From Verrucomicrobiota bacterium (GTDB taxonomy: Bacteria > Verrucomicrobiota > Verrucomicrobiia > Verrucomicrobiales > DEV007), in assembly GCA_045046875.1 (NCBI GenBank), contig JASFYY010000010.1, positions 1 to 64,000 of the forward strand: a DNA stretch of 64,000 bases, written 5' to 3'. A program made the translations under genes and the position numbers. The notes beneath the pieces are model-generated. The model saw nothing but the letters and a program-made list of their open reading frames with translations. It made no database searches and had not been told where the DNA came from. This document shows positions 26,322 through 52,587 of this stretch, piece by piece. The number at the start of each line of letters is the position of its first letter. Position 1 is the stretch's first letter.

Positions 26322-26943
26322 TTTTTGCAGGCGGGTAAGAGCTTGTCATCATAGGAGTGATTTGAGGCAACTTGCTGGAGATCGGAGTCACCGGGTAAAC
26401 CTTGATCCCGACTCCGTAACCGGGCGGGAGAGTCACCTCTGCGATACCGCCACCACCGTCCGTCCCAATCCGGCCAGACAGACCTTTGAATACGGAGCCG
26501 ATTTGTTGCCCCGCTGGCGTGCTGCAACTCGCAAGCGTAAAGGCCGCCGCCGCCATCAAAAAAATCGGTAGCACGTTATTGACCCCAGAAATATCGAAGC
26601 CGCCTTTGGGACGTGCTTTACTCGATTGGCTGGACACGTTGGCATCACGGCTGAAAAATCCATTAACACCAGACATTGCCAAAATCAACGCAACAAGGTT
26701 TTGTAAAGCTTCACCCCCTTCCGCCGATATTTCATCGCCCCCGAGATGTCCAGTGAATACGCCGATAGCCGCCGCTATTTGAGAAATCCCCGCCGTAGTG
26801 GTTTTCCAATTGCGGAGATTTGCGAATAGTAATTTGTATAGATAATTGAATAGTAGTTTCATAACGAATCCCGGTTTGTTGCTGTTCCGGTTTCGTCGTA
26901 GTTCACGCATACGCTTGAGCTGTCTGTTTGCATCACCGGCCAT
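26311..26943 (-). CDS. Holin-like protein with internal lipobox
   Basis: NWKTT + two TMs, then FLMAAAAFTLASC; first gene of the lysis cassette. Confidence 0.6.
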   Translation of the reverse strand: MAGDANRQLKRMRELRRNRNSNKPGFVMKLLFNYLYKLLFANLRNWKTTTAGISQIAAAIGVFTGHLGGDEISAEGGEALQNLVALILAMSGVNGFFSRDANVSSQSSKARPKGGFDISGVNNVLPIFLMAAAAFTLASCSTPAGQQIGSVFKGLSGRIGTDGGGGIAEVTLPPGYGVGIKVYPVTPISSKLPQITPMMTSSYPPAKNVE

Positions 26944-27040
26944 CGTAGAAATGGACGTGTCAAAAAACGGTGGTCAGAAAGTAGGCCACCGTGAATTCGG
27001 GGCAACATTCTAAAAAAGCTCTCATCCCAGACATCTGGAT

Positions 27041-27094
27041 AAAAAAATGCCCGCACCAGAGCAACTTTCTCCCGAAATTGCTACCGATGCGGAC
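27041..27094 (-). terminator. Intrinsic terminator-like long hairpin with T-tract downstream of the sulfotransferase
   Basis: Minus strand GTCCGCATCGGTAGCAATTTC-GGGA-GAAAGTTGCTCTGGTGCGGGC-ATTTTTTT. Confidence 0.6.
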
Positions 27095-27162
27095 TTTTCC
27101 ATTGGGGTGGGAATATAAAAAAGCAACAAAACTAACTAGATCAACTGTTTTGTTTAACTTTT

Positions 27163-30556: not shown

Positions 30557-30559
30557 AAT

Positions 30560-33250: not shown

Positions 33251-33274
33251 CGCGCTCTACGAAGCGCGATGGAG

Positions 33275-33871
33275 TCAAATAACCTTTCTCAAATCAAAAA
33301 TCTCAATTGTTAGCGCAGCTCTCTTTACCATCATTCTAGACAAATCATTTTCTATCTCCACCAACTGACTCCCCGCCGATTTATACCGTTCATCAAGAAA
33401 TCCATACTTCGTTACCTTACTGCCATTAGCCTGCTCAAAATTATACTTATCAATAAATTCTTTATGCCACATCACTTCAGCATTTGCCTCATCAATTCGA
33501 GATGACATAATGGTCAATTCCAATTCATACACCTTCAACTTATTTGCAATCTCCTGCACTTCATTCTGCCTCTCCAGCTCTTTTGCTGATTTCTGCTGAG
33601 CTATCCTCGAATCCCTCAGCTCAGTCGACTGCAAAATCACCGCCACAGCCACACCCACCAGCGCAATGCCTGAAAATAAAGCATTCACCGCCCCAAAACT
33701 ATCGCCAATTGCTGCCGCCTGGTTCATATCCCCGGATAGACACCAAATGATACCCGTCAAAACAAACCAAAGACCAACCATCAACGCCAGATACCCGGCG
33801 ATCATACCAGGATCATACCATTTTCTCGTTCCTTCTTTATCCTCACTCATGCCCCAACGCTCGTCCCACAT
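33275..33871 (-). CDS. Membrane moron resembling the N-terminus of putative abortive-infection (AbiC-like) proteins
   Basis: GDSFGAVNALFSGIALVGVAVAVILQSTEL after a TM, then a coiled coil; more AT-rich than neighbours; start probably 33850. Confidence 0.55.
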   Translation of the reverse strand: MWDERWGMSEDKEGTRKWYDPGMIAGYLALMVGLWFVLTGIIWCLSGDMNQAAAIGDSFGAVNALFSGIALVGVAVAVILQSTELRDSRIAQQKSAKELERQNEVQEIANKLKVYELELTIMSSRIDEANAEVMWHKEFIDKYNFEQANGSKVTKYGFLDERYKSAGSQLVEIENDLSRMMVKRAALTIEIFDLRKVI

Positions 33872-33894
33872 CTAAGCTACATGCAAGAAAAAAT

Positions 33895-34062
33895 TCACCC
33901 CTCTTCACCCTCCCCAAAAAACAACGGATCGAACGGAATCGCCACATAAGGAAACTCCGGCTCCAAACGCGGCCTCTCATCCCTCGCCACCTCCGCCGCC
34001 TTCTCCCGCTCCGCCCTCAGCCGAGCCGCCTTATCAAATCCAAATCCGTCATCTACGCTCAT
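33895..34062 (-). CDS. Small phage protein (55 aa, below the ORF-track cutoff)
   Basis: MSVDDGFGFDKAARLRAEREKAAEVARDERPRLEPEFPYVAIPFDPLFFGEGEEG; phage-like codon usage. Confidence 0.6.
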   Translation of the reverse strand: MSVDDGFGFDKAARLRAEREKAAEVARDERPRLEPEFPYVAIPFDPLFFGEGEEG

Positions 34063-36463: not shown

Positions 36464-38233
36464 CTATCTCCGGTTAAACACCGCCCTACCAGTCGGCGGA
36501 TTCTTAGTTGGTTTTTGTTTCTCGATCCGTTCCAAAGTCGCCAACACCTTCTCCTGCACCTGCACCCCCTTCTCCGCCACCTCCAAAGCCCGCTCCGGGA
36601 TCTGTTGACTGCCAAACAGAGAATTCACCGCATTTTGCAAACTACCCGTAGCAGCACCACCCGATTTACCACCCACACCAGAAAAAGCCCCACCCGCCTG
36701 CAGCCCAAATTTATCGCCAAAATTCCTCTGCATCGATCTTAATTCATTCAGCCCTGGCGTATCCGCAAAGAGCCTCGACCGACCAGACGGCTGCGGCGTC
36801 CCACCCGCCGCCAACTTAGCTTCACGGAAATCATGATCCAACGGCGTGAACTGCCCCAAATCAATCTCCTCCATCAAGTTGATCGCATCCGTCACCGGCT
36901 TTATCATAGCCGCCAATCGATCTTCCTTGCTCTTAGTATCAAAAAGAGGCGAACTTTCAGCAGGTCCAGCAGGTCTGCCCGCACGAATATTCTCCTTCTG
37001 ACCTCTAGTCATATTCGATATATCCGTCGTCTCACCCGTATCTTGATTGTGGGAAAATTCCATCTTCTGCAATCCCACAGAATTAAGTAACCCATTCAAA
37101 AAACCTTCAGAACTCTCGAACGCCGTTTTAATAGAACCAAATAGTCTATCCCCAAACGCCTCCGCCATGTTGAGGAATTGAGCCTTTAACCCATCAAGCT
37201 TTCCACCTTCGCCAAGCGATTGGAAAGTTTTTATAACTACCGCCTGCAGATGATTCGCCGCCTTCTCAAAAGCGATCTGCAACGCCACCCCAAGCGCCCC
37301 CATGATATCCCCACCGCTCAGCTCCTCCAACGACGTCCGCACAAACGTCACCCCGTCACCCAGCGCCTCACCCACCAGCGCCGCCTCGTCCTTCATCGAC
37401 TTCACCAGCTCGATAGCATCCACCAGCACCGGCTTCAGCGCATCACCCAGAGGCTTCCCCATCTCCAACCGCAAAATCGAAAATTGATCCTTCAGCGTAG
37501 AATACCTACCCGCCAAAGTCGTCGCCTGCCTCTCCAGCAGGTTATGAAAATTACCGCCTTCACTGGTCAAGTCGATGAAAGCTTGTTTAACATTCTCAAA
37601 CCCTATCTTTCCCTTACTTCCCAGCTCCTTCACCTGGTCCACACTCACCCCCAGCTGCTTGGCGAACTCCTGCAGCACCGGGATCCCCCGCCCCGTCAGC
37701 TCATTAATATCCTTTGCGAACAACCGCCCCTGCACTTGCGCCTTTCCATATAACGACGCAATTTCACCAATCGGCGCACCGATAGCCGACGAAATATCAC
37801 CGATCCTCCTCAAAGTATCAGGCACCTCCTCCGCTGCCGCGCCGAACGCCAGCAACGATTTAGCAGCATTCCCCAGATCCTCGAACTGCAGCGGCGTATT
37901 AGCCGCATCCTCCCGGATCCTCGCCAAAAGTTCCGTCGCCTGCGAGCTATCACCCACCAGCACATCAAACGCCACCTCGAGCTGCTCCTGATTCGCAGCC
38001 TCCACCAACGAATCCTTCAAAATCTTACCAATCCCCACCGCAGCCACCCCCACACCAATCGCCGCCAATGCAGGCAAAAACGCAGCTTTAAACCCCTTCG
38101 CCAGATTCGATCCCAGCCCACGTCCCTTGCGCTCCGCCCCACCCGCAAACGTGCTCAGCCTCTTATTCGCCTGCCCCAAAGCAGCCCGAAACTTACTGAT
38201 CTCCAAATCCAATTCTGCAGTTATCTCAGCCAT
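36464..38233 (-). CDS. Tail tape measure protein
   Basis: EQLEVAFDVLVG...AANTPL...LRRIGDIS...YGK...GRL..DINEL..RGIP tape-measure domain. Confidence 0.92.
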   Translation of the reverse strand: MAEITAELDLEISKFRAALGQANKRLSTFAGGAERKGRGLGSNLAKGFKAAFLPALAAIGVGVAAVGIGKILKDSLVEAANQEQLEVAFDVLVGDSSQATELLARIREDAANTPLQFEDLGNAAKSLLAFGAAAEEVPDTLRRIGDISSAIGAPIGEIASLYGKAQVQGRLFAKDINELTGRGIPVLQEFAKQLGVSVDQVKELGSKGKIGFENVKQAFIDLTSEGGNFHNLLERQATTLAGRYSTLKDQFSILRLEMGKPLGDALKPVLVDAIELVKSMKDEAALVGEALGDGVTFVRTSLEELSGGDIMGALGVALQIAFEKAANHLQAVVIKTFQSLGEGGKLDGLKAQFLNMAEAFGDRLFGSIKTAFESSEGFLNGLLNSVGLQKMEFSHNQDTGETTDISNMTRGQKENIRAGRPAGPAESSPLFDTKSKEDRLAAMIKPVTDAINLMEEIDLGQFTPLDHDFREAKLAAGGTPQPSGRSRLFADTPGLNELRSMQRNFGDKFGLQAGGAFSGVGGKSGGAATGSLQNAVNSLFGSQQIPERALEVAEKGVQVQEKVLATLERIEKQKPTKNPPTGRAVFNRR

Positions 38234-38898
38234 TATCTTCTACTTTTAAAACCCGCTTTTCTAGCCGCATTCTCAAGAAAGTAATCCACCTGGCTGTGCA
38301 TCCTCTCCGACTGCGTCTTCATCGCAAAATCCATCCGCCGCTCGATCCCTTTCACATTCCCCGCGAACTTGACCTTATTCGTTATCAGCACATTGATCCC
38401 CCGACCACTCACCCGGATCTTCACCGCCCCCGGCGACGAATGCCGCCAGATCCAAGCCGGAGGTTTGTATCCCAGCTTGGCCGCCGCCGTATTGAATCCC
38501 CCCGCCAAAAAACCAACCTTCTTTTTACGCTCCCGCAGGTATCTAGTGAATTCACCCTTGGGAACCAAATGCACCACCCCGCGCTTATTAACCCGCCCGC
38601 GAAAATTCCTCCGCTTTTGATGCACCTGCTTCAGATCCACACCCTTGCGGGCAAACTTCGCCGATGCAGGAGCCAATACTCGCCTTATATCACGCTCCAC
38701 CGCAGCCTCCCCTTGCTTTTTCGCAGCCTGACCAGATACCCCCTCAGACCCAGGAGGAGTCACCGAAATCAAAGTCTTCACAATACTCTTCGCCTGCGCC
38801 TTCATCACTTCCTCCAGCGATTTCTTAGAATACTTCATGAAACGCTCAACCGACCGATTGAACTCCCCCGTCTCAAAATGTAGCTCTTTTACAGCCAT
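38233..38898 (-). CDS. Basic neck/tail-completion protein (HK97 gp10-like position)
   Basis: Lys/Arg-rich; structural module. Confidence 0.5.
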   Translation of the reverse strand: MAVKELHFETGEFNRSVERFMKYSKKSLEEVMKAQAKSIVKTLISVTPPGSEGVSGQAAKKQGEAAVERDIRRVLAPASAKFARKGVDLKQVHQKRRNFRGRVNKRGVVHLVPKGEFTRYLRERKKKVGFLAGGFNTAAAKLGYKPPAWIWRHSSPGAVKIRVSGRGINVLITNKVKFAGNVKGIERRMDFAMKTQSERMHSQVDYFLENAARKAGFKSRR

Positions 38899-39592: not shown

Positions 39593-39596
39593 AAAT

Positions 39597-40456: not shown

Positions 40457-40490
40457 AATAAAAAAGTTAAATAATAGTTACAAAAGAAAA

Positions 40491-40814
40491 TTAAGCCGCC
40501 GTGGAGAATGCTTTGCCAGTGATCTCAAAATCAGGGTATTCCCCCTCAGCCACCTCAGTGGACTCCGCAGATATCACCTTCACCGCCCCAGCAACGAACT
40601 CCCCGGAAGTCACCCCAGCAAACGCAGGATCACCCTTGCCGCGAATCGTCACATCCTCCTCGATGAGTTTTTTGGCACGCATCTTAACAAACTCCCCCAA
40701 CTCATCACGGACAACTGCCTTGCCCTGCTTACGCCCACGCCGCGATTCCGAAGTGAATCCATTCGTCGGGGTGGTCAATCCAAAGGTGCTAGTTACTCCA
40801 TGTGCGTCAGCCAT
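40491..40814 (-). CDS. Small tail-tube-like protein A
   Basis: 107 aa from ATG 40814; between the tail-terminator region and the chaperones. Confidence 0.5.
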   Translation of the reverse strand: MADAHGVTSTFGLTTPTNGFTSESRRGRKQGKAVVRDELGEFVKMRAKKLIEEDVTIRGKGDPAFAGVTSGEFVAGAVKVISAESTEVAEGEYPDFEITGKAFSTAA

Positions 40815-40840
40815 AACAAATAGCAATTGTCAAAACACAT

Positions 40841-41059
40841 CTACTCGCCCACGCTACTCTCGATCACCACACCCGAATCACCCCGGAGCTCCAAAATCGG
40901 TCGCGACTCCTCATCCGGCCAATCCCGCTTTTTCAAAAAAGCCTCATAGCTCCGCCGCCGATCCTTCAGATCCCCTACCCCAATCACAGCCCTGGCATTC
41001 TGCCCATTCGCCGTCACCGACACTACCTGCCCCAAATCCACTCTTTTTTTCTTTGCCAT
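40841..41059 (-). CDS. Phage hypothetical protein
   Basis: Start ATG 41059 (MAKKKRVDL), 14 nt after TTGACA. Confidence 0.55.
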   Translation of the reverse strand: MAKKKRVDLGQVVSVTANGQNARAVIGVGDLKDRRRSYEAFLKKRDWPDEESRPILELRGDSGVVIESSVGE

Positions 41060-41079
41060 AAATATTGGCAAAATGTCAA

Positions 41080-41295
41080 TCACTCCCTTCCATGGATCTT
41101 AAACCTCCAGTGTTTACCGGACACCTCCAACACCCCCTTTTTTACCAGCGCATTCATGTGTCCCATCGCAGCGGACTGAGTAAATCCAAAAAAAGCAGCC
41201 ACGTCTCGACTGCTAGGCAGCCGATCCTCATTAGCAAAGAATTCCTTGATAAAAACCAACACCTCAGCTTGTCGCTTACTCAATTCATCAGACAT
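41080..41295 (-). CDS. Stand-alone LexA-type winged-helix DNA-binding domain
   Basis: LSKRQAEVLVFIKEF....RLPSSRDVAAFFGF.QSAAMGHMNALVKKGVL matches the LexA N-terminal domain pattern. Confidence 0.8.
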   Translation of the reverse strand: MSDELSKRQAEVLVFIKEFFANEDRLPSSRDVAAFFGFTQSAAMGHMNALVKKGVLEVSGKHWRFKIHGRE

Positions 41296-41340
41296 TCACT
41301 AACCAATGAACGAAAACCTAGCCACACTCAAGGAAAAAAC

Positions 41341-41640
41341 TCACTCCACACACCCAGATTCATAGCACTCATGCCCTAGCCCCCAAGGCTCCACCTTCCC
41401 AAAAACAGCATATTCTAAAAAGACCATCTCCTCCCTCACTCGATCTGGCACCAACGAGCAACCCGTCATCCACAGCACCACCAGCAACGAGGTCAGTAAC
41501 ACTACCAGCCACCGGAAAAAACGCCAGCGCCTCACTTTAAGTGTTTCCGAAAAAATTACCCTCCTCTTTTTATTGCGACCCCTATACCTAACTTTTATAT
41601 ACTCCCAGCGAGGATGCGCTTCAATATTCATCATCTTCAT
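41341..41640 (-). CDS. Membrane protein / lipoprotein candidate
   Basis: Basic N-terminus, TM, LWMTGC lipobox-like motif. Confidence 0.45.
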   Translation of the reverse strand: MKMMNIEAHPRWEYIKVRYRGRNKKRRVIFSETLKVRRWRFFRWLVVLLTSLLVVLWMTGCSLVPDRVREEMVFLEYAVFGKVEPWGLGHECYESGCVE

Positions 41641-42068
41641 TGTTTCTCCACTCCCATCTTCACCGCCATCGCAGAGACCCATTTCTGCCCATCATTCAGA
41701 CTCCGCCAATCCCCCGTCGAAAAACTCGTTCCTCCCGTCAGACCAAAACCCTCCACTTGCAGTGCCGCATCCAACTGAACTTTATTAGCCTGCGAAAACA
41801 ACCAATCAATGCCCGCCTTATCCACCACCTCACGATGCCGCACCAACGACGTCTGATCCGAGAATGCCGGAGTCTCCACCCTCACCTCAAGCTCCGCCAC
41901 GTATAGTGGACCGACCGACCAATTCAACTCCACCGCAAAAATCAGAAACTCTTTAGTTGGATCAAGATCCACATCACTAGTCTCACCCCGCACCTCCACC
42001 ACAAACGCCTCGCCTGCAAAATAAGCGTCCGCATAAGCCTTCAAAGCCTGCTCAATATTCAGATTCAT
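41637..42068 (-). CDS. Tail terminator-like protein
   Basis: 143 aa; head-tail connector position. Confidence 0.5.
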   Translation of the reverse strand: MNLNIEQALKAYADAYFAGEAFVVEVRGETSDVDLDPTKEFLIFAVELNWSVGPLYVAELEVRVETPAFSDQTSLVRHREVVDKAGIDWLFSQANKVQLDAALQVEGFGLTGGTSFSTGDWRSLNDGQKWVSAMAVKMGVEKQ

Positions 42069-42652
42069 ACCAAGCCTATTATTTTACTCAAAGCCTCCGC
42101 CTCTTTCCTCGCCCCCACCAAAGCTCGATGAGGTTTCGGCTCAGCAGGTAGCCCCAGCAACGCATAGATCTCATCCGTATAAAGCCCGCGTGAAGGGATC
42201 TCCAGCACATCCGATAATCCATGCGCCACCGCCAAGCTATGCAGATCCAGCACACGGTGCCGGAACGCCCGCGCCACCTTCACCCCAGCCCGCTCACAAG
42301 CCCTTAATACAAACGCACGATCAAAAGACGGATTCAGTCCCGCCAACATCACCGGCTCGTCCTGCGTAGCCTCACACCAGTTCAACAGCTCCAAAATAGC
42401 TTCCCCCTCAGTCGGCAACACCGGATTCGTGCACCGAGCCATACTCAAGCCATGCACATCAGCAGCTCTGTCATCCCACTTCGCCCCCTCCCACATCTGG
42501 CAGTCCATCTGGAACTCGCCCACACCGCCAGTCAGCCACACCGCACCCATCTCGACAATACTGTGTTTATTCGCATCCAAGCCAGTCGTCTCAAGATCCA
42601 CCACCAGTATCCGGGGAGACATCACATATTCATTCGGTTCGCCATCGTTCAT
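42065..42652 (-). CDS. DEDD-family 3'-5' exonuclease
   Basis: ExoI VVDLETTG, ExoII NPSFD, ExoIII-like HRALVGA. Confidence 0.85.
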   Translation of the reverse strand: MNDGEPNEYVMSPRILVVDLETTGLDANKHSIVEMGAVWLTGGVGEFQMDCQMWEGAKWDDRAADVHGLSMARCTNPVLPTEGEAILELLNWCEATQDEPVMLAGLNPSFDRAFVLRACERAGVKVARAFRHRVLDLHSLAVAHGLSDVLEIPSRGLYTDEIYALLGLPAEPKPHRALVGARKEAEALSKIIGLV

Positions 42653-42674
42653 GGTATCCGACCGATGTCAATGA

Positions 42675-42998
42675 TCAGCCAGGCCACTGAATCGCCACAA
42701 ACTCCCACGAGATCGCCCCCGATCCACGTCCGCTCAGATCCTCATCAAAGCGATACGTCTCCCCCGCATGCACAATCGACGCCCCTTTTTGCGGCAACGC
42801 CGCCAGCACACTCTTGCGGATCGTCACCGTCAGCGACTTGATCCTACCTATCCCCCCATCCATCAGCTCCGCCTGCTGTCCACTCACCACCGCCGCACAT
42901 GCATAAGGCGTCCCACCTATCGTTACCGTCTCCGGCCACAGATCCTCTGCCGAAGCCTGCATCTGATCTTCAAATCCCGCGAGTTGATTAGCATCCAT
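42675..42998 (-). CDS. Head-tail joining/closure protein
   Basis: 107 aa, beta-rich (lambda FII-like position); start ATG 42998. Confidence 0.55.
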   Translation of the reverse strand: MDANQLAGFEDQMQASAEDLWPETVTIGGTPYACAAVVSGQQAELMDGGIGRIKSLTVTIRKSVLAALPQKGASIVHAGETYRFDEDLSGRGSGAISWEFVAIQWPG

Positions 42999-43015
42999 AC
43001 TCAAGCTCAGTCGTC

Positions 43016-43060
43016 AAAAAAAGCAGCTCCGACTCGCTCAAAAGAGCCAATCGGAGCCGC
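43016..43060 (-). terminator. Intrinsic terminator after the capsid operon
   Basis: GCGGCTCCGA...TCGGAGCTGC followed by T7 that runs into TTGACG. Confidence 0.8.
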
Positions 43061-43086
43061 AGGTAGCATAGGACTTTGGTGGTCTG

Positions 43087-43617
43087 CTATTCTCCTTTCT
43101 TCGCCTTTTTAGGCGGAGCACGGAAAGTGTCCGCAGCTCGCTCCACCGGTTCTGGTGGCGCGGCTGGATCCGTCTCAGTATCCTGTCCTTTTTTGGACTC
43201 AGGATCTGCTTTATTATCGGAAATTTTCTTTTTCTCAGCTTCGATTTTTTCAGCTGCTGCAGCCTTCTCTTTCACCGCTGCCGCCTGCTCGTCAGCTTCT
43301 TTCTTCAGCTTTTCTTCTTCAGCTTTTGCCTCCGCAGCTGCCGTGTCCACAGCCTCGGCACCCAAACGATCAATTTCAGCCAGCTTGGCTTCTTCGATCT
43401 TCAGTCCTGCCGCGGCACCGGCTTCGCGGAATTTGTGTGACTTTGCACATCTGCCTCGCATCCAAATTTCAAGACGAGGATAATCGTCATTCGGAGCATC
43501 GTCCGCCGCGACCCGTTCTTTAAACTCCTTCAGCAGTTCACTGAACGGCTTAACATCGGAAACCACTTTCCCCTCCCGACGGTTTAGAGAAAAGGCGATG
43601 AGGATAGCTAGTTTCAT
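43087..43617 (-). CDS. Phage protein with Ala/Lys/Glu-rich low-complexity tail
   Basis: Directly downstream of the capsid gene. Confidence 0.65.
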   Translation of the reverse strand: MKLAILIAFSLNRREGKVVSDVKPFSELLKEFKERVAADDAPNDDYPRLEIWMRGRCAKSHKFREAGAAAGLKIEEAKLAEIDRLGAEAVDTAAAEAKAEEEKLKKEADEQAAAVKEKAAAAEKIEAEKKKISDNKADPESKKGQDTETDPAAPPEPVERAADTFRAPPKKAKKGE

Positions 43618-43660
43618 AAAGTGACTTGGTTAGAAATTGATTCCAGATGCTTCAGTCTGA

Positions 43661-44587
43661 TTATGGAGTGACAATGCGTTTCAGCGCGCCAACCTCACCG
43701 ATAGCGAAGCCATAGTGAGCCTCGATCACCTGCACCTCTTGTGACGTATCAGGATAAACCAGATGCTTGTATTCCAAAACCAGCCCGGTGTATTCATCCT
43801 TCACAATGCGATAATCATAAACCTGAGACATCTGCGCCTTCGTTGGAGGCACCGGAGCAAATGCCGTAAGGATGGCCGAAGGAAAACTAACAAAACCCGC
43901 CAGTTTTTCCAACCCATTAGTAGGCACCCCGTTCGAACCAAAAGTATTGAACTCCAAAATACGCTGCACTAATGCCTCACGTAGCACCGCTGGATCATTC
44001 GACTGCGACGCATCGAGCAAAGCAGGGCTCCCAACTAAGGCATAATAAAAAGCAGGGTTGAGCACCATACCACGCCCCACATTTGGCCAATCGGCCTCCA
44101 TTGCCAATTTTGCCAATTCGGCGACATCAACCTCATCGAAGTTATCTGCGATAGTAGCCGCGATGGTAGTGGAAGGGAAATTGGCTGCTGTCACCACCGA
44201 CAGAACGTCAGCGGTAATATCCGAAGCCAGCTTTTCAGCCTTTAATTGCCCGTGCATCTCTGGATTAAATTTTGGCTCGCGCGCCACTTGCTGTGCCGTG
44301 AACGAGATCGCTTGAACTTTGTGTTTATCAAGAGCAACAGTTTTCGACAAAGTGTTCGTATCAGTTGCTTTAGCAAGGTAAGAATCAGACGCAGCCATAT
44401 CCTGACTCGCGTCGGTGGCCAGCGGGTAATATGGAACATTTATCGTCCCATCCCCCTGCAGCTCCACATCCTCGTATGCTTGCGAAAAAATTGATAGTGG
44501 CAGAATCGCTTTACGAAAAGCGACCAGCGCTGAATCTAAGACTTCTGTGAGTTGGAGTTCGGAAACAATTGCGTTTGTAGTAGCCAT
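43661..44587 (-). CDS. Major capsid protein
   Basis: 308 aa; GDGTINVP, LNPAFY and YGFAIG..ALKRI HK97-fold-like motifs; follows protease and scaffold. Confidence 0.8.
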   Translation of the reverse strand: MATTNAIVSELQLTEVLDSALVAFRKAILPLSIFSQAYEDVELQGDGTINVPYYPLATDASQDMAASDSYLAKATDTNTLSKTVALDKHKVQAISFTAQQVAREPKFNPEMHGQLKAEKLASDITADVLSVVTAANFPSTTIAATIADNFDEVDVAELAKLAMEADWPNVGRGMVLNPAFYYALVGSPALLDASQSNDPAVLREALVQRILEFNTFGSNGVPTNGLEKLAGFVSFPSAILTAFAPVPPTKAQMSQVYDYRIVKDEYTGLVLEYKHLVYPDTSQEVQVIEAHYGFAIGEVGALKRIVTP

Positions 44588-44648
44588 TTGAGTAGTGAGT
44601 TTTTGTGATTATTTTTGAAATACAGATTCTGCGATTCGTTTTAAATTG

Positions 44649-45272
44649 TTACTTGCTTCGCGATTTGAATTCTCGCAGCAGCGCGCTGCGTTCCTCCTGC
44701 GTTTCACAGGCTTTCAAATTTTCCTCAAGCTCTGCCCGAGTCTTAGCTTTAGCGTTTGTTCCACCTTGCGTTTCATCTTTCCCAGGCAATCCAGTTTCAG
44801 GCACGCCAGCTGATGCCAGCGCATCAGTCGTCGCCTGCTGCACCGTAGTTTTCGATTTCACCGCCTCATCCAGCGCCGCTTGCAGCTCAGTATTAGCCGT
44901 GCGTTGAGCATCAAGATCCGTAGTCGCCGTCGCCAACTCATTTGTCAGTCGCGCCACTTCCGCCCGCGCCTGACCTGCCGAAGCTGTCAGCTGCCGATTG
45001 GATGCGACCAACTGAGCATTGCTGCTCACCATCGCCTTGGCATTATCCAAGATCCCTGGCTTCGCAACCTGCTCTCCAGATTTATTCTTAGCCGCAGCTT
45101 CCTTCGCCGCCTCAGCTTCCGCTTGCACCGCCTCCATCTCACCCGCAGCCGAAGCCAGCGATGTCAGATACTGCAGCTCAGCAGTCGTGACTTCAGTGTG
45201 ATCTCCCTCAGCAGTGCCAAGTAGAGTGATAAGACGGGCTCGTTGTTCAGCGCTAAGTTTCATGAATATCAA
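44649..45272 (-). CDS. Scaffolding-like protein
   Basis: Ala-rich coiled coil between protease and capsid. Confidence 0.6.
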   Translation of the reverse strand: MIFMKLSAEQRARLITLLGTAEGDHTEVTTAELQYLTSLASAAGEMEAVQAEAEAAKEAAAKNKSGEQVAKPGILDNAKAMVSSNAQLVASNRQLTASAGQARAEVARLTNELATATTDLDAQRTANTELQAALDEAVKSKTTVQQATTDALASAGVPETGLPGKDETQGGTNAKAKTRAELEENLKACETQEERSALLREFKSRSK

Positions 45273-45308
45273 ATTTGTTTTTTTGAGTAGAATGCGATCA
45301 AATCGACT

Positions 45309-46145
45309 TTATGCATTCGCCGCCGTGTCAATCAGATTGGCGAACAAGTGGTCAATTGTGAGAAAAAAACCATCCACCAATCCCGCGTCCAAAGCCCCTT
45401 GCCCCGAGTAGTATCCCCCCTGATACATCGCCTCCGCCAGATGCGGACGCCGCGAACGAACAAAAGCCTTAAACTCACCACCCACCTGCGTCACCCGTTC
45501 TTGGAAAAATGCCCGCTGCTTATCGCTCAGCGTTTTCCCAGGCATACCACCAGCCTTCAAGTCGCCATCAGTGAACAGCTCCATTTTCAAACCATCCATC
45601 TCCCACGCCCGGCTCTCATCCAGGATCGCAATATACGCAGAAATCGAACCCACAATCGCACTCGGTCCAGCATAGATTTCATCACAAGCCGACGCCAAAT
45701 AATAACCCGCGCTGCACGCCATGTTATCGACATAAGCAATCGTCCGCTTCGTCTCCGCCAACTCACGGATCAACTCCGCACCTTCACCCACGCTGGTCGC
45801 GATCCCGCCCGGAGTATTAAAAGTCGTCACCACCGTATGCACATCATCCCGCTGCTTCAGCTCCGCACACTGCCTTTCAAGCAGCGCCAGATCATACCCC
45901 CCGCCACACTCCATTTCCATGAAGCTCAAATGTTTCCCGATCACCCCCGCCACCCTATTCAGCGCAAAGCCATCCGCAATCAAAACCCCAGGAGGCGGAG
46001 ACGTCCGCTCAACTGGCGCAGCGTGCGCCGTATTCACTCGCCCCATCAAATGCGAGTGCAGCACCTTCCCCATCGACGCATGCTGATCCTCCCGGATCAA
46101 CCAAGGCTCAGAATAAAACTTTGTCGCGATTCTATGTAAACTCAT
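45309..46145 (-). CDS. S49-family prohead protease (lambda gpC-like)
   Basis: NTPGG, ACSAGYYLAS, VGSIS, GLVDG. Confidence 0.9.
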   Translation of the reverse strand: MSLHRIATKFYSEPWLIREDQHASMGKVLHSHLMGRVNTAHAAPVERTSPPPGVLIADGFALNRVAGVIGKHLSFMEMECGGGYDLALLERQCAELKQRDDVHTVVTTFNTPGGIATSVGEGAELIRELAETKRTIAYVDNMACSAGYYLASACDEIYAGPSAIVGSISAYIAILDESRAWEMDGLKMELFTDGDLKAGGMPGKTLSDKQRAFFQERVTQVGGEFKAFVRSRRPHLAEAMYQGGYYSGQGALDAGLVDGFFLTIDHLFANLIDTAANA

Positions 46146-47665
46146 TATTTTTCCTTTTTATCTAAGCCCGAATTTTCAGCGAGCATCGGGGTTGAAAGCC
46201 CAGGGAAAACTTCCCTATAGTCCAACGGAGGCTCATACTCCGCGCACCGCTTTTTGGCATAGCCCACCTCATTGATCCTCTGGTTAACTTGCTTCTTCCA
46301 AAAAATCCCCTTATTCCCAGAGAGCTCAGCCCACGTCGCATTACCCGTCTCCAAATTGATAATCGACAACTTGCCTTCACGTCCTTTATCAATAGTCAGA
46401 TTCGGCTGCCCAATCCACTCCACCAGCCGCCAGTATTCCTCACCAGGATCAGGCAGGCGCCCCGCCTTGATCTCCTTCGCCATGTGGTAAGCGTAATAAC
46501 GCTTACACCACTTCGCGAGTTTGTATTGCTCGTTCAAAATCCAGCGATTGATCTCGTCCATCACATATCGGATACCCGGACCCGTCACCCCGCTGATCTC
46601 GCATAAAGCCTCATAAGGCAAATCCACCCCCCATGTGCAATCTCTCAGCAAAGACTTTTCAAAATCCATGTGGTTCTGAGATGGGCGATTAGAAGTGATC
46701 ACCTTCAAAGTTTCCCCCGGCGCGAGATCTGGAGTTTTACCCCCGCCCGTCGCCATCTCCCAATCTACCTCTTGAGTTGACCCATCCGGCATCGTCACTT
46801 TAGCCTTGATCAGTGGACCAGCCAAACCCGACGCACTCGACACCACCGCCGTCGGCAGCGCCTTCTCTTTTACCACGCCAATACGATTGTCATCCTTGAT
46901 GCCATGCTTCACAAATCCCCTCGTCTGCACCACATCCATCATGTTGGTCACCGCATGCACCAATATCGACAAGCCTCGCACTTGACCATGCGTTTCAAAA
47001 TTCCCAAAATAGATAGCATCCCGCACATCCACCGGGCTGAAATTCGACGGATCCTCGCTGGAGCGCAAAGAGTATCCCATGTGCCGACCGAACTTGTCCA
47101 GCCTCACCCCCATCGTCATGTTGCTCGGAGGCTTCGACGGATTAGTGATCTGATCCGCCTCATAAAAAGCCAACCTCGCCCCCTTGCTCGAAGTCTCCGT
47201 CAGCACCGCCAAACTATCCCCATCCTTAAACCTGTTGCGATTGATCTGCTGCTGCGCCGTGAAAAAATCAAATTTTCCAGCCCGATCAAAAATCTGTTCA
47301 GCACCCGCCCGAGCCATAAAATTATCAAACGCCAGCTCATTCCATTCATCGTCACTAGTATTCGGCTGCGGAGTCATCGACCCGATCAGCTTCGACATCC
47401 CGTTTACCAGGCGTCGCGCAAAACCAAAGTTCGCATAAAGCCAATGCACACGTTTCCGAATCTCCCTCGCGCTGATCGGAGTCATCTGCCTGCGCGAATC
47501 CGTCGACGGCATATACACATATCCACGAGCCGGGCTGCTGCTCGCCGCCTCATACCCACTCATCAGCAAATACCCCCCCTGCACACCCTCCATTTGTGTC
47601 CCTGAAATTGACCGTTCACGTGAACGGTCAAACTGAGCTTGTTCTGTTTTCAGAGCATCACTCAT
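46145..47665 (-). CDS. Portal protein, lambda family
   Basis: YEAA, LYANFGFAR, DGDS, GVRLDKFGR, QVRGLS, IDKGRE; position. Confidence 0.85.
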   Translation of the reverse strand: MSDALKTEQAQFDRSRERSISGTQMEGVQGGYLLMSGYEAASSSPARGYVYMPSTDSRRQMTPISAREIRKRVHWLYANFGFARRLVNGMSKLIGSMTPQPNTSDDEWNELAFDNFMARAGAEQIFDRAGKFDFFTAQQQINRNRFKDGDSLAVLTETSSKGARLAFYEADQITNPSKPPSNMTMGVRLDKFGRHMGYSLRSSEDPSNFSPVDVRDAIYFGNFETHGQVRGLSILVHAVTNMMDVVQTRGFVKHGIKDDNRIGVVKEKALPTAVVSSASGLAGPLIKAKVTMPDGSTQEVDWEMATGGGKTPDLAPGETLKVITSNRPSQNHMDFEKSLLRDCTWGVDLPYEALCEISGVTGPGIRYVMDEINRWILNEQYKLAKWCKRYYAYHMAKEIKAGRLPDPGEEYWRLVEWIGQPNLTIDKGREGKLSIINLETGNATWAELSGNKGIFWKKQVNQRINEVGYAKKRCAEYEPPLDYREVFPGLSTPMLAENSGLDKKEK

Positions 47666-47976
47666 TACGACCGCAAAGGTTGATGTGAATAATCCGTGCC
47701 CGACCCAAACGCCCTCGAATCCACCACCGGTTGCCCTGCCGCCAAGTTAGCCAAAGCAGCCTGGCATGCCGCGATAAAATCAAGTTGATCCTCCGGTTTC
47801 GCCAGCGTGATCCCCGCCGCATTCCGATCCCCCATCGACGACGTCGTGATGTGGATATTGACCGACACCCGCGACTCCAGTGCTGCCCGCACCTTATCTT
47901 TTAACGCAATAATTTCAGCCTCAGACTTGTTGTCCGTCAGCTCAGCGATGTAAATAGGATTATTGAACAAGCCCAC
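47665..47976 (-). CDS. Head completion protein (gpW position)
   Basis: Small ORF between terminase and portal. Confidence 0.55.
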   Translation of the reverse strand: MGLFNNPIYIAELTDNKSEAEIIALKDKVRAALESRVSVNIHITTSSMGDRNAAGITLAKPEDQLDFIAACQAALANLAAGQPVVDSRAFGSGTDYSHQPLRS

Positions 47977-47995
47977 GCCTCGGCGGGAATGTCAA

Positions 47996-48175
47996 TCACT
48001 CCGACTCTTCCGCTTCATCCGCCTCTTTCTCCCTCTTCACCTTCGCCCAGCGTGCCCGCGCCGCTGCGCTCGCCTGCTCACTGCTTCGAGCCTTGCTCTT
48101 GCCCTTCCCCGCAGTTCCGCCCTTCTTCCCCATCTCCGAGAAGTATTTCGAGATTATGCTCTTTTTGTCCGCCAT
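47996..48175 (-). CDS. Small basic KGG-motif-like protein
   Basis: MADKKSIISKYFSEMGKKGGTAGKGKSKARSSEQASAAARARW. Confidence 0.6.
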   Translation of the reverse strand: MADKKSIISKYFSEMGKKGGTAGKGKSKARSSEQASAAARARWAKVKREKEADEAEESE

Positions 48176-48287
48176 GCTCGGGGGAACATACCACAAGAAC
48201 CCCATCTGACCAGAAGCGAACCACCAAGCCCGCTTCCACCGCCTCAGCATGCATCGCTTTTAATTTTTCAGTGTGTTTCTTAGCCAT
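48078..48287 (-). CDS. Small hypothetical protein (overlaps the KGG ORF in another frame)
   Basis: ATG directly downstream of a sigma70-like promoter. Confidence 0.4.
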   Translation of the reverse strand: MAKKHTEKLKAMHAEAVEAGLVVRFWSDGVLVVCSPEHGGQKEHNLEILLGDGEEGRNCGEGQEQGSKQ

Positions 48288-48296
48288 CGTTCTTTA

Positions 48297-48325
48297 ACTA
48301 TGCGCAAGCGGCTTGCGTTTGTCAA
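48297..48325 (-). promoter_or_regulatory. Sigma70-like promoter with palindromic spacer
   Basis: TTGACA-17 nt-CATAGT; the spacer contains CGCAAGC-N-GCTTGCG (48303-48317). Confidence 0.65.
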
Positions 48326-50223
48326 GCCGCCTCTTGTTCCCCCTCTTCCGGTGGCGACTCATCCGGATCAAAAGCCAGCAGGTAAGGTTTGACCACATAC
48401 CAATCCACAAAATTGAGTTTCACCCCATCACCAAAATCATTAGCTCCTTTTGGTTTTGCCCACTGCTGGATGTATTGATTTCCACGCACCACCAACTTCC
48501 TCTCCTCCTGACACAATTCCGCTGTGAAACTAGGATCAGGATTGCGCATCATGTGGATCAACGGAGCCTTCGCCACATTCCCTTCAGCTCGCTCCTCCAG
48601 TATTTTCTTACGCCCCGCGATACAATGTTCATAAACAATCGTTTTGAAATTGTCGTCCGAGAACTGGTAAGCCGTCACCGGATGACCCGCCTGACTATAG
48701 CGCTCCTTCGCCTCCACCACATCTTTCACCTGGGTTCCACCCGCACCACGTGCTGGGTAAAATCTCAACATCGGCGTTCCATCAGGCATCTCTCCAATCA
48801 CCGTTTGTAAACAAAAATTTCTAACCACAAAGGTATCAAACCCCTCATCAATTAGCCCGGTTAATACAACCGGATCTATTTGCTCATCCTCCGGCGTATC
48901 CCCCCAGTCATCCACAATCACCGGAGTATCCGCCGCCAACAGCAAATCCCGCTCAGAAATACAAGTTCCATAATCAACGATATAAGCCTCATCCTCTTTG
49001 ATCCGCCACGCCATCTTCACCCACTTGTAAACATCCAACTGCTTATCCACCCCCATCGTCACCAGATCCGGCACCACCGGACAATGCCCATGTTCATAAG
49101 TTCCCTCCATGTCACTCATGTGACTGTCCCGCACCTCCACCGTCTTTTTCCTCACCGGTTCACCCAGGCGATTACGCCGAAAGTGATCCAGCTTATCGGA
49201 ATCGCCCTGAGCATCGAGCCACTCCGACACAATGATTCCCCAAGCAGCTTTGGGGAAAGTAGAATACAAATCAGAAATATCGCAGGAAAAACGTCGAGGC
49301 TTAGGTTTGAAACGATCCTGCCCATAGTTCGTCCGCCGCCACTCGTAGCGGCTCATCATCTCAGGCTTGTGTTTCTCCTCAATCTTTCCTTTGCAAGCAG
49401 GATTAGCACACTCGTAGTAAGTCTCCGTCAGCACCCTGTCCGCATCCCACCCGCCAACCAGATCTTTACAGTGTTCAAATTTTAGCTGCTTGAAATCAAT
49501 CGTCTGGTAAAAATCACAATGCGGACACGGCACAAAACAACGATGCCGACTGCCTTTCAAATAGTCCTGGTTCAACTGGCTCTCCCACTGATCAGGCTTG
49601 GAGATCTCCACAAAAAAAGCATCCGATACTCGCTTCGTTCGATCCCTCAACAAATGCACCGGGTGCGACTCCGTCCGATGCTCTACCGTCCGATAGGCAT
49701 CCACCTCATCCGCAATCGCCAGCCCAATCGACTTGTTAGCCAGCGCCCCCACCGAATTCGCCCCCGCCAAATAAATCGTCAACCCCTTTAGCGACAAAGT
49801 CAGGTTAGTAATCCCGTCATCATTTTCAGCGATCTTGCCGTCAGCTGCCGCGCAATTTCTCAGCATCGGCTGCAACCGCTCCGTGCTGATCTTCCTCGCC
49901 TCGTCGCGGCTATCGATACAATAAAAAATATTGCGCGAGAAATTTACTACCCAATAGCAAATCAAAATCAAACACGCCAAAGTGAATCCACTCTGCGAAG
50001 ATTTCCGACACACAAACTCATCCCAATCCCCCGAGCTCGCCACGTCAAACAGGATCCGTGTATGTGGCGTCAGCGACGAATCATAACGTCCAGGAAAATC
50101 CGCACTCTCCTTTGTATCAAGCTTGATATTTTCCTCACCCCATTCATGAATCGGCTGAGTCGGACGAGCCCGAAGCACCCGCTTAAACACCGACGTCACA
50201 AAACCAGCCGTCGAAAACATCAT
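48322..50223 (-). CDS. terL: Terminase large subunit, GpA family
   Basis: W.E.N, LTPH, KSSQSGFT (Walker A-like), IADEVD, VPCPHC..Q, YECANPAC, GVDKQ, NDFGD. Confidence 0.93.
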   Translation of the reverse strand: MMFSTAGFVTSVFKRVLRARPTQPIHEWGEENIKLDTKESADFPGRYDSSLTPHTRILFDVASSGDWDEFVCRKSSQSGFTLACLILICYWVVNFSRNIFYCIDSRDEARKISTERLQPMLRNCAAADGKIAENDDGITNLTLSLKGLTIYLAGANSVGALANKSIGLAIADEVDAYRTVEHRTESHPVHLLRDRTKRVSDAFFVEISKPDQWESQLNQDYLKGSRHRCFVPCPHCDFYQTIDFKQLKFEHCKDLVGGWDADRVLTETYYECANPACKGKIEEKHKPEMMSRYEWRRTNYGQDRFKPKPRRFSCDISDLYSTFPKAAWGIIVSEWLDAQGDSDKLDHFRRNRLGEPVRKKTVEVRDSHMSDMEGTYEHGHCPVVPDLVTMGVDKQLDVYKWVKMAWRIKEDEAYIVDYGTCISERDLLLAADTPVIVDDWGDTPEDEQIDPVVLTGLIDEGFDTFVVRNFCLQTVIGEMPDGTPMLRFYPARGAGGTQVKDVVEAKERYSQAGHPVTAYQFSDDNFKTIVYEHCIAGRKKILEERAEGNVAKAPLIHMMRNPDPSFTAELCQEERKLVVRGNQYIQQWAKPKGANDFGDGVKLNFVDWYVVKPYLLAFDPDESPPEEGEQEAA

Positions 50224-51197
50224 TCCTCCGACTCCAATTCAAATGCTGGACCGAAGTCAGCAGCCCCCATGCTTTCAAAACATTTATCCAACGCCTCATT
50301 CCAGGTCTCCGTCATCTGCTGAAACAAATCCCCCGAAATAGACAGCTTCGTCGCCACCCGCACCGGCAGCGACCGCAATCCTTGATGCACCGTATTCAAC
50401 CGCTCGATGAACTCCGCCTCGAGCTCATCCCGGTTCACCAACCTGCCCGCCGTCAGCAATACCGACTCCGCATCCTTCTCAGCTTTCCGCAGCGCCTCAA
50501 AAGCTCGCTCCCATGCCCGCTGCCTCATCTCCACCGAGGCCGGTTCATTTTTGATCGCATGCTGCACCATGCCCGCCGCCAACTGCTCAGCCTGCCTCGC
50601 CCTTCCCAGAGCCGCCTCAAAACCTAGACCCTTTGGAAGATTCCTCGAATCAAAAGAAATCCCACTCGACACATCCCCCTGCCCCTCCGCCTTATCACCA
50701 GATTCCAACTTCAACAAAGACTCCGGCACCTTCTGCGTCATCACCCGCCGCCACCACCCAGCCACCTCTCCAGGGTTATCCAATGGCGGAGGATCGGGCG
50801 GATTCTTTTCCCGCCCACGCTTGATCATTCGTTTAATCGTCCTGTCCGATTTATATCCGAGCAGCTCAGCGTAATGGCTCAGCTTATGCGGGTAGGTTGT
50901 CGCCGTCGATTTCTTCGCCGCCTGCTTCCGATCCGGCACCCACGCCCCCAGCTCAGCGAACTCCGCATCCGTCAGCCGTCCACCCTTCGCCCACTTTCGC
51001 AACAACGACGCCACCCGAGTTTTGAGCAGCTCATCCGTATCCGTATCACCCGCCACCAGCTGCGCCATCATTTCGCGCTCATTCCCTGACAGCGTTGCCC
51101 CCTTCCCCACTTTAGTGATGACGTTTCTCAAATCCGCCGTCAGCACCTTTTCCGCCAGATCCGGAGTAACGTCAGACATCGCCTCCCACTTTCTCAA
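50220..51197 (-). CDS. Terminase small subunit-like protein
   Basis: Directly upstream of terL; HTH-like segment and C-terminal GRLVNRDE...LRSLP motif. Confidence 0.6.
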   Translation of the reverse strand: MRKWEAMSDVTPDLAEKVLTADLRNVITKVGKGATLSGNEREMMAQLVAGDTDTDELLKTRVASLLRKWAKGGRLTDAEFAELGAWVPDRKQAAKKSTATTYPHKLSHYAELLGYKSDRTIKRMIKRGREKNPPDPPPLDNPGEVAGWWRRVMTQKVPESLLKLESGDKAEGQGDVSSGISFDSRNLPKGLGFEAALGRARQAEQLAAGMVQHAIKNEPASVEMRQRAWERAFEALRKAEKDAESVLLTAGRLVNRDELEAEFIERLNTVHQGLRSLPVRVATKLSISGDLFQQMTETWNEALDKCFESMGAADFGPAFELESEE

Positions 51198-52524
51198 TCA
51201 CCAGCCCATGCCCTAACGCCCGTTCCAAAATCACCGCACAATATTTCGGATCCAATTCCGTCATCACACAGCGCCGCCCAGTTTCCTCAGCCGCAATCAA
51301 AGTCGTGCCACTTCCGCCAAACAGCTCCAGCACAATTTCACCCTTCCTCGACGAATTCCAAATTTGCCGCGCCACCAACCCCAACGGCTTGATAGTCGGA
51401 TGCATAGGACTCTTCGCCGCCTTCGGTTCCCGGATCACACTCGAGCCCCTATCATTTCTCAAATTTTTGATAACCTCAATCAGATCCACCTTCGATTTTT
51501 TCAGCAAAGCCGCCTCATCATCGATCACCGTGCTTTCCGAAAATCCCCCCTGCCAATAATGCGCAGCCCCCGGCTTCCAACCATACAGAATAGGTTCATG
51601 CTGCCACTGGTGATCCTGCCGCCCCAGCGTAAACCCACTTTTCACCCACACCAGGCACTGCTTCAAATCCCAATCAGCTCGCGCAAAACACTCCCGATTC
51701 ACCAGCCCATGAGTCTCCGCATGAGCCACGTAAATTGCCCCACCCTTTTTCGTGAATTTAAACGCCACCTCAAAAGCCGACTCCAAAAGCTCTTCATAGT
51801 CCGCCGCCGACAACTCATCATTAATCAACTCCTGCGGCACCACTCCACTTTCGCCACCCTTACTTTCAACCCGACTCGCCTGCAATTCATGGTACGCCAC
51901 ATTGTAAGGCGGATCCGTCCACACCATATCTGCTACTTTATCACCAAGCAGCAACCTCCAACTTCCCTCATTCGTGCAATCCCCACAAAGTAATCGATGC
52001 TCGCCCACCTGGAACAAATCCCCAAACTCCACCTGCCACTTTTCCTGCAGCTCTTCCGCCGCCGAAACCAACTCCTCCGTTTCCTCCTGATCGCCCTCCA
52101 AATCGGGAGCCGACAGCATCCCCAATAATTCCTCCGCATCGAACCCCGCCAGCGCGATATCCAATCCCGCCGCCTCCAAGTCCTGGGCAATAAAATTTAA
52201 AACCTCATCATCGAACACACCAATCAAACGATTCGCTGCAATCAACCGAGCCAAGTGAGTCTCTTCATCATAGTCCACTATCGATACCTCGACGTGCGTG
52301 TAACCCATATCCGCCAGCACCTTCGCCCGCAAATGCCCCGAAACCAGCATCCCATTCCGCCGATTCACCACCAGCGGATCAAAATAATCATGCCCCAACG
52401 ATTTCTTTAACACCTCCCACTCCGGACTCCCCGGCTCCGGATGCTTCCTCGGATTCCGTGGATGCGGTTTCAGCCCCGCCACCTCCACCCTCTCAATGTT
52501 CAATTTTGCTACCAGCTCGCTCAC
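51172..52524 (-). CDS. ParB-like N-domain fused to N6A/N4C DNA methyltransferase
   Basis: LKPHPRNPRKH, VSGHLR; TDPPYNV, HPTIKP, LFGGSGTT, ELDPKY. Confidence 0.9.
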   Translation of the reverse strand: MSELVAKLNIERVEVAGLKPHPRNPRKHPEPGSPEWEVLKKSLGHDYFDPLVVNRRNGMLVSGHLRAKVLADMGYTHVEVSIVDYDEETHLARLIAANRLIGVFDDEVLNFIAQDLEAAGLDIALAGFDAEELLGMLSAPDLEGDQEETEELVSAAEELQEKWQVEFGDLFQVGEHRLLCGDCTNEGSWRLLLGDKVADMVWTDPPYNVAYHELQASRVESKGGESGVVPQELINDELSAADYEELLESAFEVAFKFTKKGGAIYVAHAETHGLVNRECFARADWDLKQCLVWVKSGFTLGRQDHQWQHEPILYGWKPGAAHYWQGGFSESTVIDDEAALLKKSKVDLIEVIKNLRNDRGSSVIREPKAAKSPMHPTIKPLGLVARQIWNSSRKGEIVLELFGGSGTTLIAAEETGRRCVMTELDPKYCAVILERALGHGLVIEKVGGDV

Positions 52525-52587
52525 TCCTTTTCGACCTTGTCAAACAGGACAAGGACACAAAGTTTTTCACTATCCCACGCAAAATAG

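Follow-up and report, generated by a model that had tools for sequence, protein, structure and literature searches.

The prophage and its motif sites

We analysed a window of 64,000 nucleotides from a Verrucomicrobiota bacterium (GenBank assembly GCA_045046875.1, contig JASFYY010000010.1, positions 1 to 64,000), which contains a complete prophage of about 41.6 kb in which a short word, TTGAC[AG], recurs at a fixed distance ahead of late genes. The prophage is bounded by two copies of a 44-bp att core that repeats the 3' end of tRNA-Ala(GGC), both on the minus strand (59749..59792 and 18230..18273), and has a tyrosine integrase gene on the plus strand (18438..19532; PF00589, E 3.8e-12). The minus strand carries a replication block with ParB-like, primase and helicase-like genes, and a late block with a ParB/methylase fusion, a gpA-type terminase, a lambda-type portal, an S49 protease and the capsid, continued by tape measure, tail and lysis-like genes. 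Named relatives are records from Verrucomicrobiaceae, Prosthecobacter and Akkermansia, which points to a Verrucomicrobiota host.

Distances are given as offsets, counted from the first T of the word to the start codon or to a pyrimidine|purine (Y|R) step; offsets 19 and 20 correspond to spacers of 13 and 14 nt. The first-pass annotation of this DNA had reported seven minus-strand TTGAC[AG] words (at 52543, 47995, 43017, 42671, 41079, 40833 and 26963) with such spacers to a GTG or ATG, and all seven were found in place, each before a codon that opens an open reading frame (ORF), with lengths of 72-450 aa. TTGACA at 52538..52543 has offset 19 to GTG 52524 of the ParB/DNA methylase fusion, which opens the packaging block and follows a gap of 530 nt. 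The next word, TTGACA at 47990..47995, lies directly 3' of the preceding stop codon, at offset 19 to GTG 47976 of a 103-aa gene before the portal; its C|G step predicts a +1 at 47976. TTGACG at 43012..43017 precedes ATG 42998 of a gene resembling head-tail attachment proteins (PF05354, just below the cut-off; offset 19, T|A step), and TTGACA at 42666..42671 precedes ATG 42652 of a 3'-5' exonuclease gene (offset 19, C|A step). TTGACA at 41074..41079 abuts the upstream stop codon and has offset 20 to ATG 41059 of a 72-aa ORF, with a T|A step at 20. At 40828..40833, TTGACA has offset 19 and a T|A step at ATG 40814 of a 107-aa conserved gene before the tape-measure block. The last word, TTGACA at 26958..26963, has offset 20 to ATG 26943 and a C|G step at 19 (predicted +1 at 26944); the gene encodes a 210-aa hydrophobic protein and lies upstream of an endolysin-like gene at 25943. 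A Y|R step at 19/20 is thus found in six of the seven sites. The genes at 52524 (ParB/methylase fusion) and 42652 (exonuclease) are non-structural, though they too belong to the late block.

We added an eighth site, TTGACA at 45326..45331 (minus strand), within the 3' end of the S49 protease gene and 68 nt ahead of ATG 45263. Its C|A step at offset 19 predicts a +1 at 45312 and a 49-nt leader to ATG 45263, from which the capsid operon (45263, major capsid 44587, 43617) would be driven. The predicted intrinsic terminator of this operon (43016..43060, minus strand) consists of a strong hairpin at 43060-43023 (-31.9 kcal/mol for the folded 63-mer) and a T7 tract, and the last two of the seven T open the next TTGAC. 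The word at 26963 is likewise preceded by a T tract and a weaker hairpin (-15.0), which bears out the terminator overlap noted earlier for these two sites. With the eighth site, the predicted starts are 52524, 47976, 45312, 42998, 42652, 41059, 40814 and 26944. Four of the seven original sites occupy nearly the whole gap after the upstream stop codon (gaps of 19, 20, 22 and 26 nt), and no motif was found before overlapping genes of the window.

Two TTGACT variants reported with longer spacers are also present on the minus strand, as weaker candidates. The one at 33273..33278 (22-nt spacer) lies 28 nt ahead of ATG 33250 of an 896-aa ORF with a weak tail-fibre match and has a T|A step at 20. That at 55980..55985 (19-nt spacer) lies 25 nt ahead of the primase ATG 55960, a replication gene, with a Y|R step at 20. 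A scan for sigma70-type promoters listed none of the five reported sites within 38000-56500, nor that at 52543, and found no such promoter in the 530-nt gap before 52524.

Statistical and host controls

The late coding strand contains 17 TTGAC[AG] words in 28.2 kb. At a 2-nt offset over 34 genes 0.04 words would be expected, and seven were observed (binomial P 2e-14; 4e-9 after correction for 55 offsets x 4096 hexamers). A chance origin of the seven sites is excluded.

In the host genome without this prophage, 6 and 6 of 4224 TTGAC[AG] words lie at offsets 19 and 20, on a background of about 2-13. The geometry had earlier seemed absent from host gene starts, and this genome-wide count, which shows no excess at 19/20, agrees. 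The host words instead peak at offsets 34-38 (13, 20, 18, 13 and 12 words), which is the geometry of ordinary leaderless promoters. The Y|R step shows no preference in the host either, with 47 of 105 at 19/20, equal to background. The motif is phage-specific, standing before late genes of the phage and not at host starts. A second, small TTGAC peak occurs in the host 47-49 nt ahead of start codons.

Conservation in related phages

Loci anchored on the capsid gene were collected from viral, genome and metagenome collections, giving 24 dereplicated loci including that of the window. A positional-enrichment check in relatives had been proposed in the first-pass annotation, and it came out clearly: 72 of 268 TTGAC[AG] words lie exactly at 19 or 20 nt (59 and 13, respectively) before an ORF-opening ATG or GTG. 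Offset 22 has 8 words and any other offset from 8 to 44 at most 5, and for the 12 single-change hexamer patterns 0-1 words were found at offset 19. The aligned sites give the profile (T)TTGACR, followed by a GC-rich spacer that is mostly GC just ahead of the start codon; positions -21..-49 hold no information that would indicate upstream activator boxes. One of the 63 offset-19 profile rows is a TTGACC at 19578 in the window that we discarded as a site, the 465-aa minus-strand ORF behind it being an antisense shadow of the integrase and not a gene. Scans of viral contigs with a single capsid or portal protein gave no match; alignments were required.

The motif precedes 100 of 892 starts with a gap upstream, compared with 5 of 394 short-gap starts. 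Cores resembling a Shine-Dalgarno (SD) sequence are depleted, at 2 of 105 motif starts versus 72 of 638 other gapped starts. The word starts within the T tract of a terminator in 6 of 102 motif sites, compared with 2 of 215 control sites. Because the mean upstream hairpin energy at motif sites (-10.0) equals that of controls (-9.9), terminator overlap concerns a minority of sites.

Two further observations were made among the loci. In one provirus (L097), an identical 20-nt sequence of TTGACG plus spacer stands ahead of three small unrelated ORFs (5080, 20333 and 20965), which suggests a mobile promoter cassette. A distantly related prophage (L254, G390:C70) has the variant (G)TTGAC[CG] at offsets 21/22 before five late genes.

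Promoter or translation signal

If the word acted on ribosomes, it would be expected to keep its distance to the start codon; as a promoter, it would keep its distance to the transcription start. A pyrimidine at position -1 was counted in 89 of 105 motif starts and in 308 of 638 other starts with an upstream gap (Fisher 6e-13); for loosely defined host leaderless starts the count was 89 of 131. A Y-1/R+1 preference of transcription start sites is described for bacteria including Akkermansia, together with 10% leaderless starts in the latter (PMC4782308).

At capsid genes the word is further from the start codon. TTGACA occurs 40-71 nt before the ATG in 25 of 30 distinct capsid upstream regions, with A/C-rich leaders that usually open with C|GAA at offset 19 or 20. 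When capsid genes were clustered at 80% identity, 11 of 14 clusters had TTGACA 40-71 nt ahead of the ATG, and 9 of these 11 lineages had a Y|R step at 19/20 (background 0.38, P 0.004); the two lineages without the step share one upstream sequence. For all intergenic TTGACA words 21-80 nt from a start codon, the step was present at 19/20 in 47 of 59 (background 0.45). With one site per gene family it remained in 21 of 30 (P 0.005), with peak offsets of 18-20 centred on 19. Since the Y|R step at 19/20 is kept with the word 21-80 nt away, the word is not locked to the start codon, and the mRNAs would therefore not all be leaderless. Judged from sequence, anchoring to a Y|R step is the signature of a transcription start.

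The word shares the -35 hexamer, TTGACA, with sigma70 promoters. The earlier statement that it is no normal sigma70 promoter fits on two counts, the spacing and the missing -10 box. A sigma70 promoter would start about 35 nt from the first T, and start codons at 19/20 would fall outside such a transcript. TAnnnT was found in none of the 59 leadered intergenic TTGACA sites at spacers of 16-18, and in none of 102 motif sites at -12..-7. The accompanying claim that a consistent SD sequence is missing also fits the conserved set, with the exception of the site at 52543, the only one of the seven with an SD-like core (AAGGAG abutting the GTG).

Several results weigh against a promoter. Positions -12..-7 are GC-rich (0.68-0.75 at 102 sites) and lack a -10-type element, with A-11 in 4 and T-7 in 11 sites, so that no known contact of sigma region 2 explains opening. 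Leadered TTGACG sites show no excess of the step (Y|R in 6 of 16), and the site at 52543 is the only one of the seven without it. GTG is unusually common (67 of 105 motif starts), and use of leaderless GTG codons in the host is an assumption. As the -12..-7 segment offers host sigma region 2 no known target, a phage factor is implied.

Taken together, TTGAC[AG] is likely to be a compact phage late promoter. Its sole sequence element would be the host -35 word at -19..-14, a position that follows from the start lying 19 nt after the first T, and it would have no -10 box. Transcription would begin at the purine of the Y|R step, 19 or sometimes 20 bases past the first T. Where this purine is also the first base of the ATG or GTG, a leaderless mRNA would result; capsid and some other genes would receive an A/C-rich leader instead. 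Leaderless mRNAs had been suggested for the whole set, and this probably applies to the former sites and not to the capsid genes and several other families, which have leaders. The signal is short enough for the 19-26 nt that separate a gene from the stop codon or terminator tail before it, so that every late module could have a start of its own. Late timing of these promoters is inferred.

Comparison with known systems

The motif resembles sigma70/sigma-A promoters, including the leaderless ones of the host, in the identical TTGACA and the Y-1/R+1 start, and differs from them in that the word is about 16 bp nearer the start and a -10 element is absent at either geometry. Leaderless mRNAs as such are familiar in the phylum (PMC4782308) and in this host, as the TTGAC peak at 34-38 indicates. 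Late promoters of the Thermus phages Lalka27a and YS40 are described as often internal and leaderless, starting from the A or G of the start codon; these phages have no RNA polymerase of their own and a phage factor was inferred, as here, yet they keep a TAnnnT-type -10 element (TAGGGT) at its normal place, which is absent in our motif (bioRxiv 10.64898/2026.04.20.719267). By analogy, the motif would work most like these dense leaderless late promoters, minus their -10 feature.

At lambda PR', a 1-bp gap separates the -35-like word from the sigma-2 site, and this spacing would equal a word at -19..-14. The geometry has a structural precedent in the Q-lambda loading complex, where sigma region 4 is released from the flap tip to occupy a -35-like site directly upstream of sigma region 2 (PMC9388147). 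The Q-lambda complex differs from the present sites in that the polymerase is paused in elongation, at a single site per genome that has a genuine -10-like element and a Q-binding element (PMC9388147).

Phage proteins that redirect host polymerase to phage promoters, as we propose here, are known from phiEco32 (gp36/gp79), where gp36 has sigma-2-like and sigma-4-like domains and reads the -10 and -35 regions (PMC12276001). The candidate described in the next section, a 178-aa protein, is unlike gp36: it has a helix-turn-helix (HTH) unit and a basic tail, and no fold match to a sigma-2 domain alone was seen, in a comparison that barely covered its N-terminal part. In phage T4, gp55/gp33 redirect the host polymerase, and the T4 late promoters are single-element.

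The SAS/ESAS elements of cluster K mycobacteriophages are also asymmetric phage words at a fixed distance before starts, with a proposed role (PMC3203893). SAS are 13 bp long, lie 3-7 bp from the start, contain an SD core and belong to non-structural genes (PMC3203893), whereas our motif has 6 bp, is free of SD cores at nearly all starts, belongs to late genes and, where a leader is present, is uncoupled from the start codon. RinA-type activators are likewise small phage proteins that switch on late genes and are encoded ahead of the packaging module, but they act at one promoter region upstream of terS (PMC3152322); the present motif has about eight scattered sites bearing a host consensus word. 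Stoperators (PMC9283540), asymmetric words of 13 bp (length as given in PMC3203893), are described as rare in the host, while our motif has information in (T)TTGACR only and 4224 host copies. The literature searched, with most subscription journals and bioRxiv supplements outside it, contained no description of this motif.

A candidate activator

The 178-aa protein (57647..58183, minus strand) carries an HTH unit and a NUMOD3-like basic tail and is our candidate activator of the motif promoters. Its gene sits in the replication block ahead of the ParB, primase and helicase genes. The protein belongs to a large unnamed viral family, with 30 Atlas clusters among the matches listed (best score 0.96); the nearest named clusters are Sigma70_r4 (0.76), a lead only. 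A phmmer search of cluster representatives yielded 154 homologues at E <= 0.001. A word-indexed protein search returned the self match alone, NCBIfam gave no match, and neither the PDB nor the viral library yielded a Foldseek match at E <= 0.001. NUMOD3 likeness was seen in 5 of 143 family members.

The structural model (predicted local distance difference test score, pLDDT, 88.6) consists of a long helix, a three-helix HTH unit and a C-terminal basic helix. Fold matches cover residues 65-146, and no match aligned to a sigma-2 domain alone, a result that barely concerns the N-terminal part. With a shallower model, fold matches reached Z 6.8. The best PDB sequence match of the family is the HTH of a mycobacteriophage immunity repressor (E 0.027).

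Of the 19 fetched records, 18 contained a homologue, and each of these 18 has at least one motif site. The exception, phage Moulinsart, has a related portal and lacks both the factor and, at its 39 examined annotated starts, the motif. Two subfamilies of the factor align by profile (probability 93, E 3.5e-7). Elements reached through the factor that also carry the motif are G528, G429, the second prophage of the window's genome (on contig C83) and, weakly, G462; for G372, G180 and G324 the retrieved DNA showed no late module and contained 0-2 motif matches. Among terminase-bearing elements from a 401-genome sample of the phylum, TTGAC[AG] stood at offsets 19-22 in 8 of 45 words in factor-positive elements versus 3 of 152 where no factor was detected, several of the latter being contig fragments or lacking upstream sequence. 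G390, G477 C22 and G206 (3/48 words), whose factor status is unclear, were left out of this count.

The role of the protein is weakened by several points. The 18/19 count relied on three hand-picked seeds at E 0.6-4.3, and strict automatic iteration found homologues in 7 of 19 records. Sigma region 4 ranks first among the fold matches of the better model (Z 5.0-5.7), tied with ScpB and other HTH proteins, and its top match is weak (Z 5.7, root-mean-square deviation 2.9 over 57 residues). Pfam Sigma70_r4 matches 7 of 143 members, with a best E of 0.004. The family-conserved recognition helix, ETRAAxSAREK, is unlike VTRERIRQIE of host sigma-A, and base-reading residues are not kept. In G477 C22 an ORF with weak likeness to the factor (E 0.005) occurs without the motif, and G390 has the motif at 21/22 with a weak factor candidate only. 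The factor and the motif may share ancestry only, and kin are not independent; their co-occurrence is one among kin and not proof.

We nevertheless favour the reading that the compact TTGAC[AG] late promoter is switched on by the 178-aa HTH protein, to which we assign a probability of roughly 0.55. The protein would either bind TTGACA itself or let host sigma region 4 bind near the start, and might thereby substitute for the missing -10 contact. Repositioning of host sigma region 4 by the phage protein would account for the identity of the word with the host consensus. Neither variant explains melting of the GC-rich region.

Alternative explanations

The same promoter and starts could operate with host RNA polymerase and sigma-A, aided by replication, supercoiling or another phage protein such as the ParB-like 541-aa protein, with no involvement of the 178-aa protein. 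This alternative, which we consider unlikely though the best placed of the four, fits the exact host -35 consensus with the same tolerance of a final A or G, the lack of sigma-A base-reading residues in the 178-aa protein, and the presence of ParB-like domains in 12-13 of 19 records. However, thousands of host TTGACA words show no Y|R excess at 19/20, so that a phage product is needed, and no member of the ParB-like family was detected in 6-7 of the records that bear the motif; HTH family members were found in all 18.

Slightly less probable still is a sigma-dependent pause or Q-like antiterminator-loading site, at which elongating polymerase would halt at the Y|R step with no new transcripts made. 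A Y-1/G+1 step is part of the elemental pause consensus, some motif sites abut terminators, and the precedent for a repositioned sigma region 4 is a paused complex and not an initiating one (PMC9388147). On the other hand, the G at -10 of the pause consensus is not enriched (G in 32 and C in 38 of 102 sites), and a -10-like pause element directly downstream of the word is absent in the 102 sites. The 43017 site lies 3' of its hairpin, too late for antitermination there; no sigma70-type promoter was found in the gap before 52524, and A/C-rich leaders starting at the step would be left unexplained.

The words could also be operators or stoperators at which a phage repressor (the 178-aa protein, possibly) keeps the late genes of the lysogen silent. 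Their asymmetry, single orientation and placement in short gaps would suit such a role, as would the immunity repressor HTH as best PDB sequence match. We regard it as improbable: a 6-bp word with more than 4000 host copies cannot confer repressor specificity, nothing informative lies upstream of it, an operator predicts no fixed Y|R step, and the prophage carries a distinct Cro/CI-like divergent pair (near 23.3 kb) as well as an antirepressor.

Equally improbable is an mRNA signal, UUGACA, for translation initiation or re-initiation, as proposed for SAS and considered earlier for this DNA beside the compact promoter that we now favour, because the word, for all its commonest spacing being fixed to the start codon, the depletion of SD cores and the many sites directly after a stop codon, stands 40-71 nt from the capsid ATG with the Y|R step kept (as in the 47 of 59 leadered words) and because at 43017 the terminated RNA would end within it.

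Sigma70-family promoters open through a -10-type element. Returning to the compact promoter, a stronger claim would be a new bacterial promoter class, in which transcription by host RNA polymerase starts 19 bp from an isolated TTGACA without a -10 element and a small phage HTH protein moves or replaces sigma region 4 at -19..-14, opening GC-rich DNA without contacts of sigma region 2. We put this forward tentatively, with the odds somewhat against it. If true, it would be the initiation counterpart of the Q-lambda geometry in a widespread Verrucomicrobiota phage family: a 19-bp promoter made of a -35 word alone over GC-rich DNA would represent another way to start transcription and a new route for phage takeover of host polymerase. 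The motif also corrects start-codon calls, many of them GTG, and marks the bounds of late operons across a large family of uncultured phages; it might serve as a very short inducible expression part for Verrucomicrobiota.

Other features of the prophage

The second, related prophage of the same genome (G000 contig C83, about 4900-28000, plus strand) has genes for the HTH factor, ParB, primase, terminase, portal, protease and tape measure, and a TTGACA-N13-GTG site at 16225; the capsid of the window prophage found no match in it at E 1e-4. Many homologues of the window capsid (43661-44587) are about 388 aa and not about 305 aa long, with an internal insertion of about 80 aa.

The divergent small-gene pair at 23087-23726 has TTGAC words on both strands (23320, 23277, 23269 and 23245). 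This Cro/CI-like pair, upstream of a Bro-N antirepressor gene, is likely the immunity switch.

Between the terminase and head genes, a small basic gene with MGKKGG repeats (48325-47996, minus strand) has homologues in 4 of 19 records. It is preceded by an ordinary sigma70-type site, TTGACA-17-CATAGT (48297..48325, minus strand), with a hairpin over the -35, which was excluded from the compact-motif counts; the gene is possibly expressed in the lysogen. Between the connector and tail genes, the segment 41080-41682 (minus strand) holds a LexA-type DNA-binding gene (71 aa), with a terminator-like hairpin at 41214-41194 inside it, and a 113-aa gene; no homologues of either were found among the 19 relative records.

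A 198-aa membrane protein similar to DUF6082 (33275-33871, minus strand) is inserted in the tail block and is likely an accessory gene; a homologue occurs in phage Moulinsart. After the tail genes, the segment 27163-29153 (minus strand) carries a sulfotransferase-like gene (PF00685/PF13469) and an uncharacterised 400-aa gene, which possibly serve in virion or host-surface modification.

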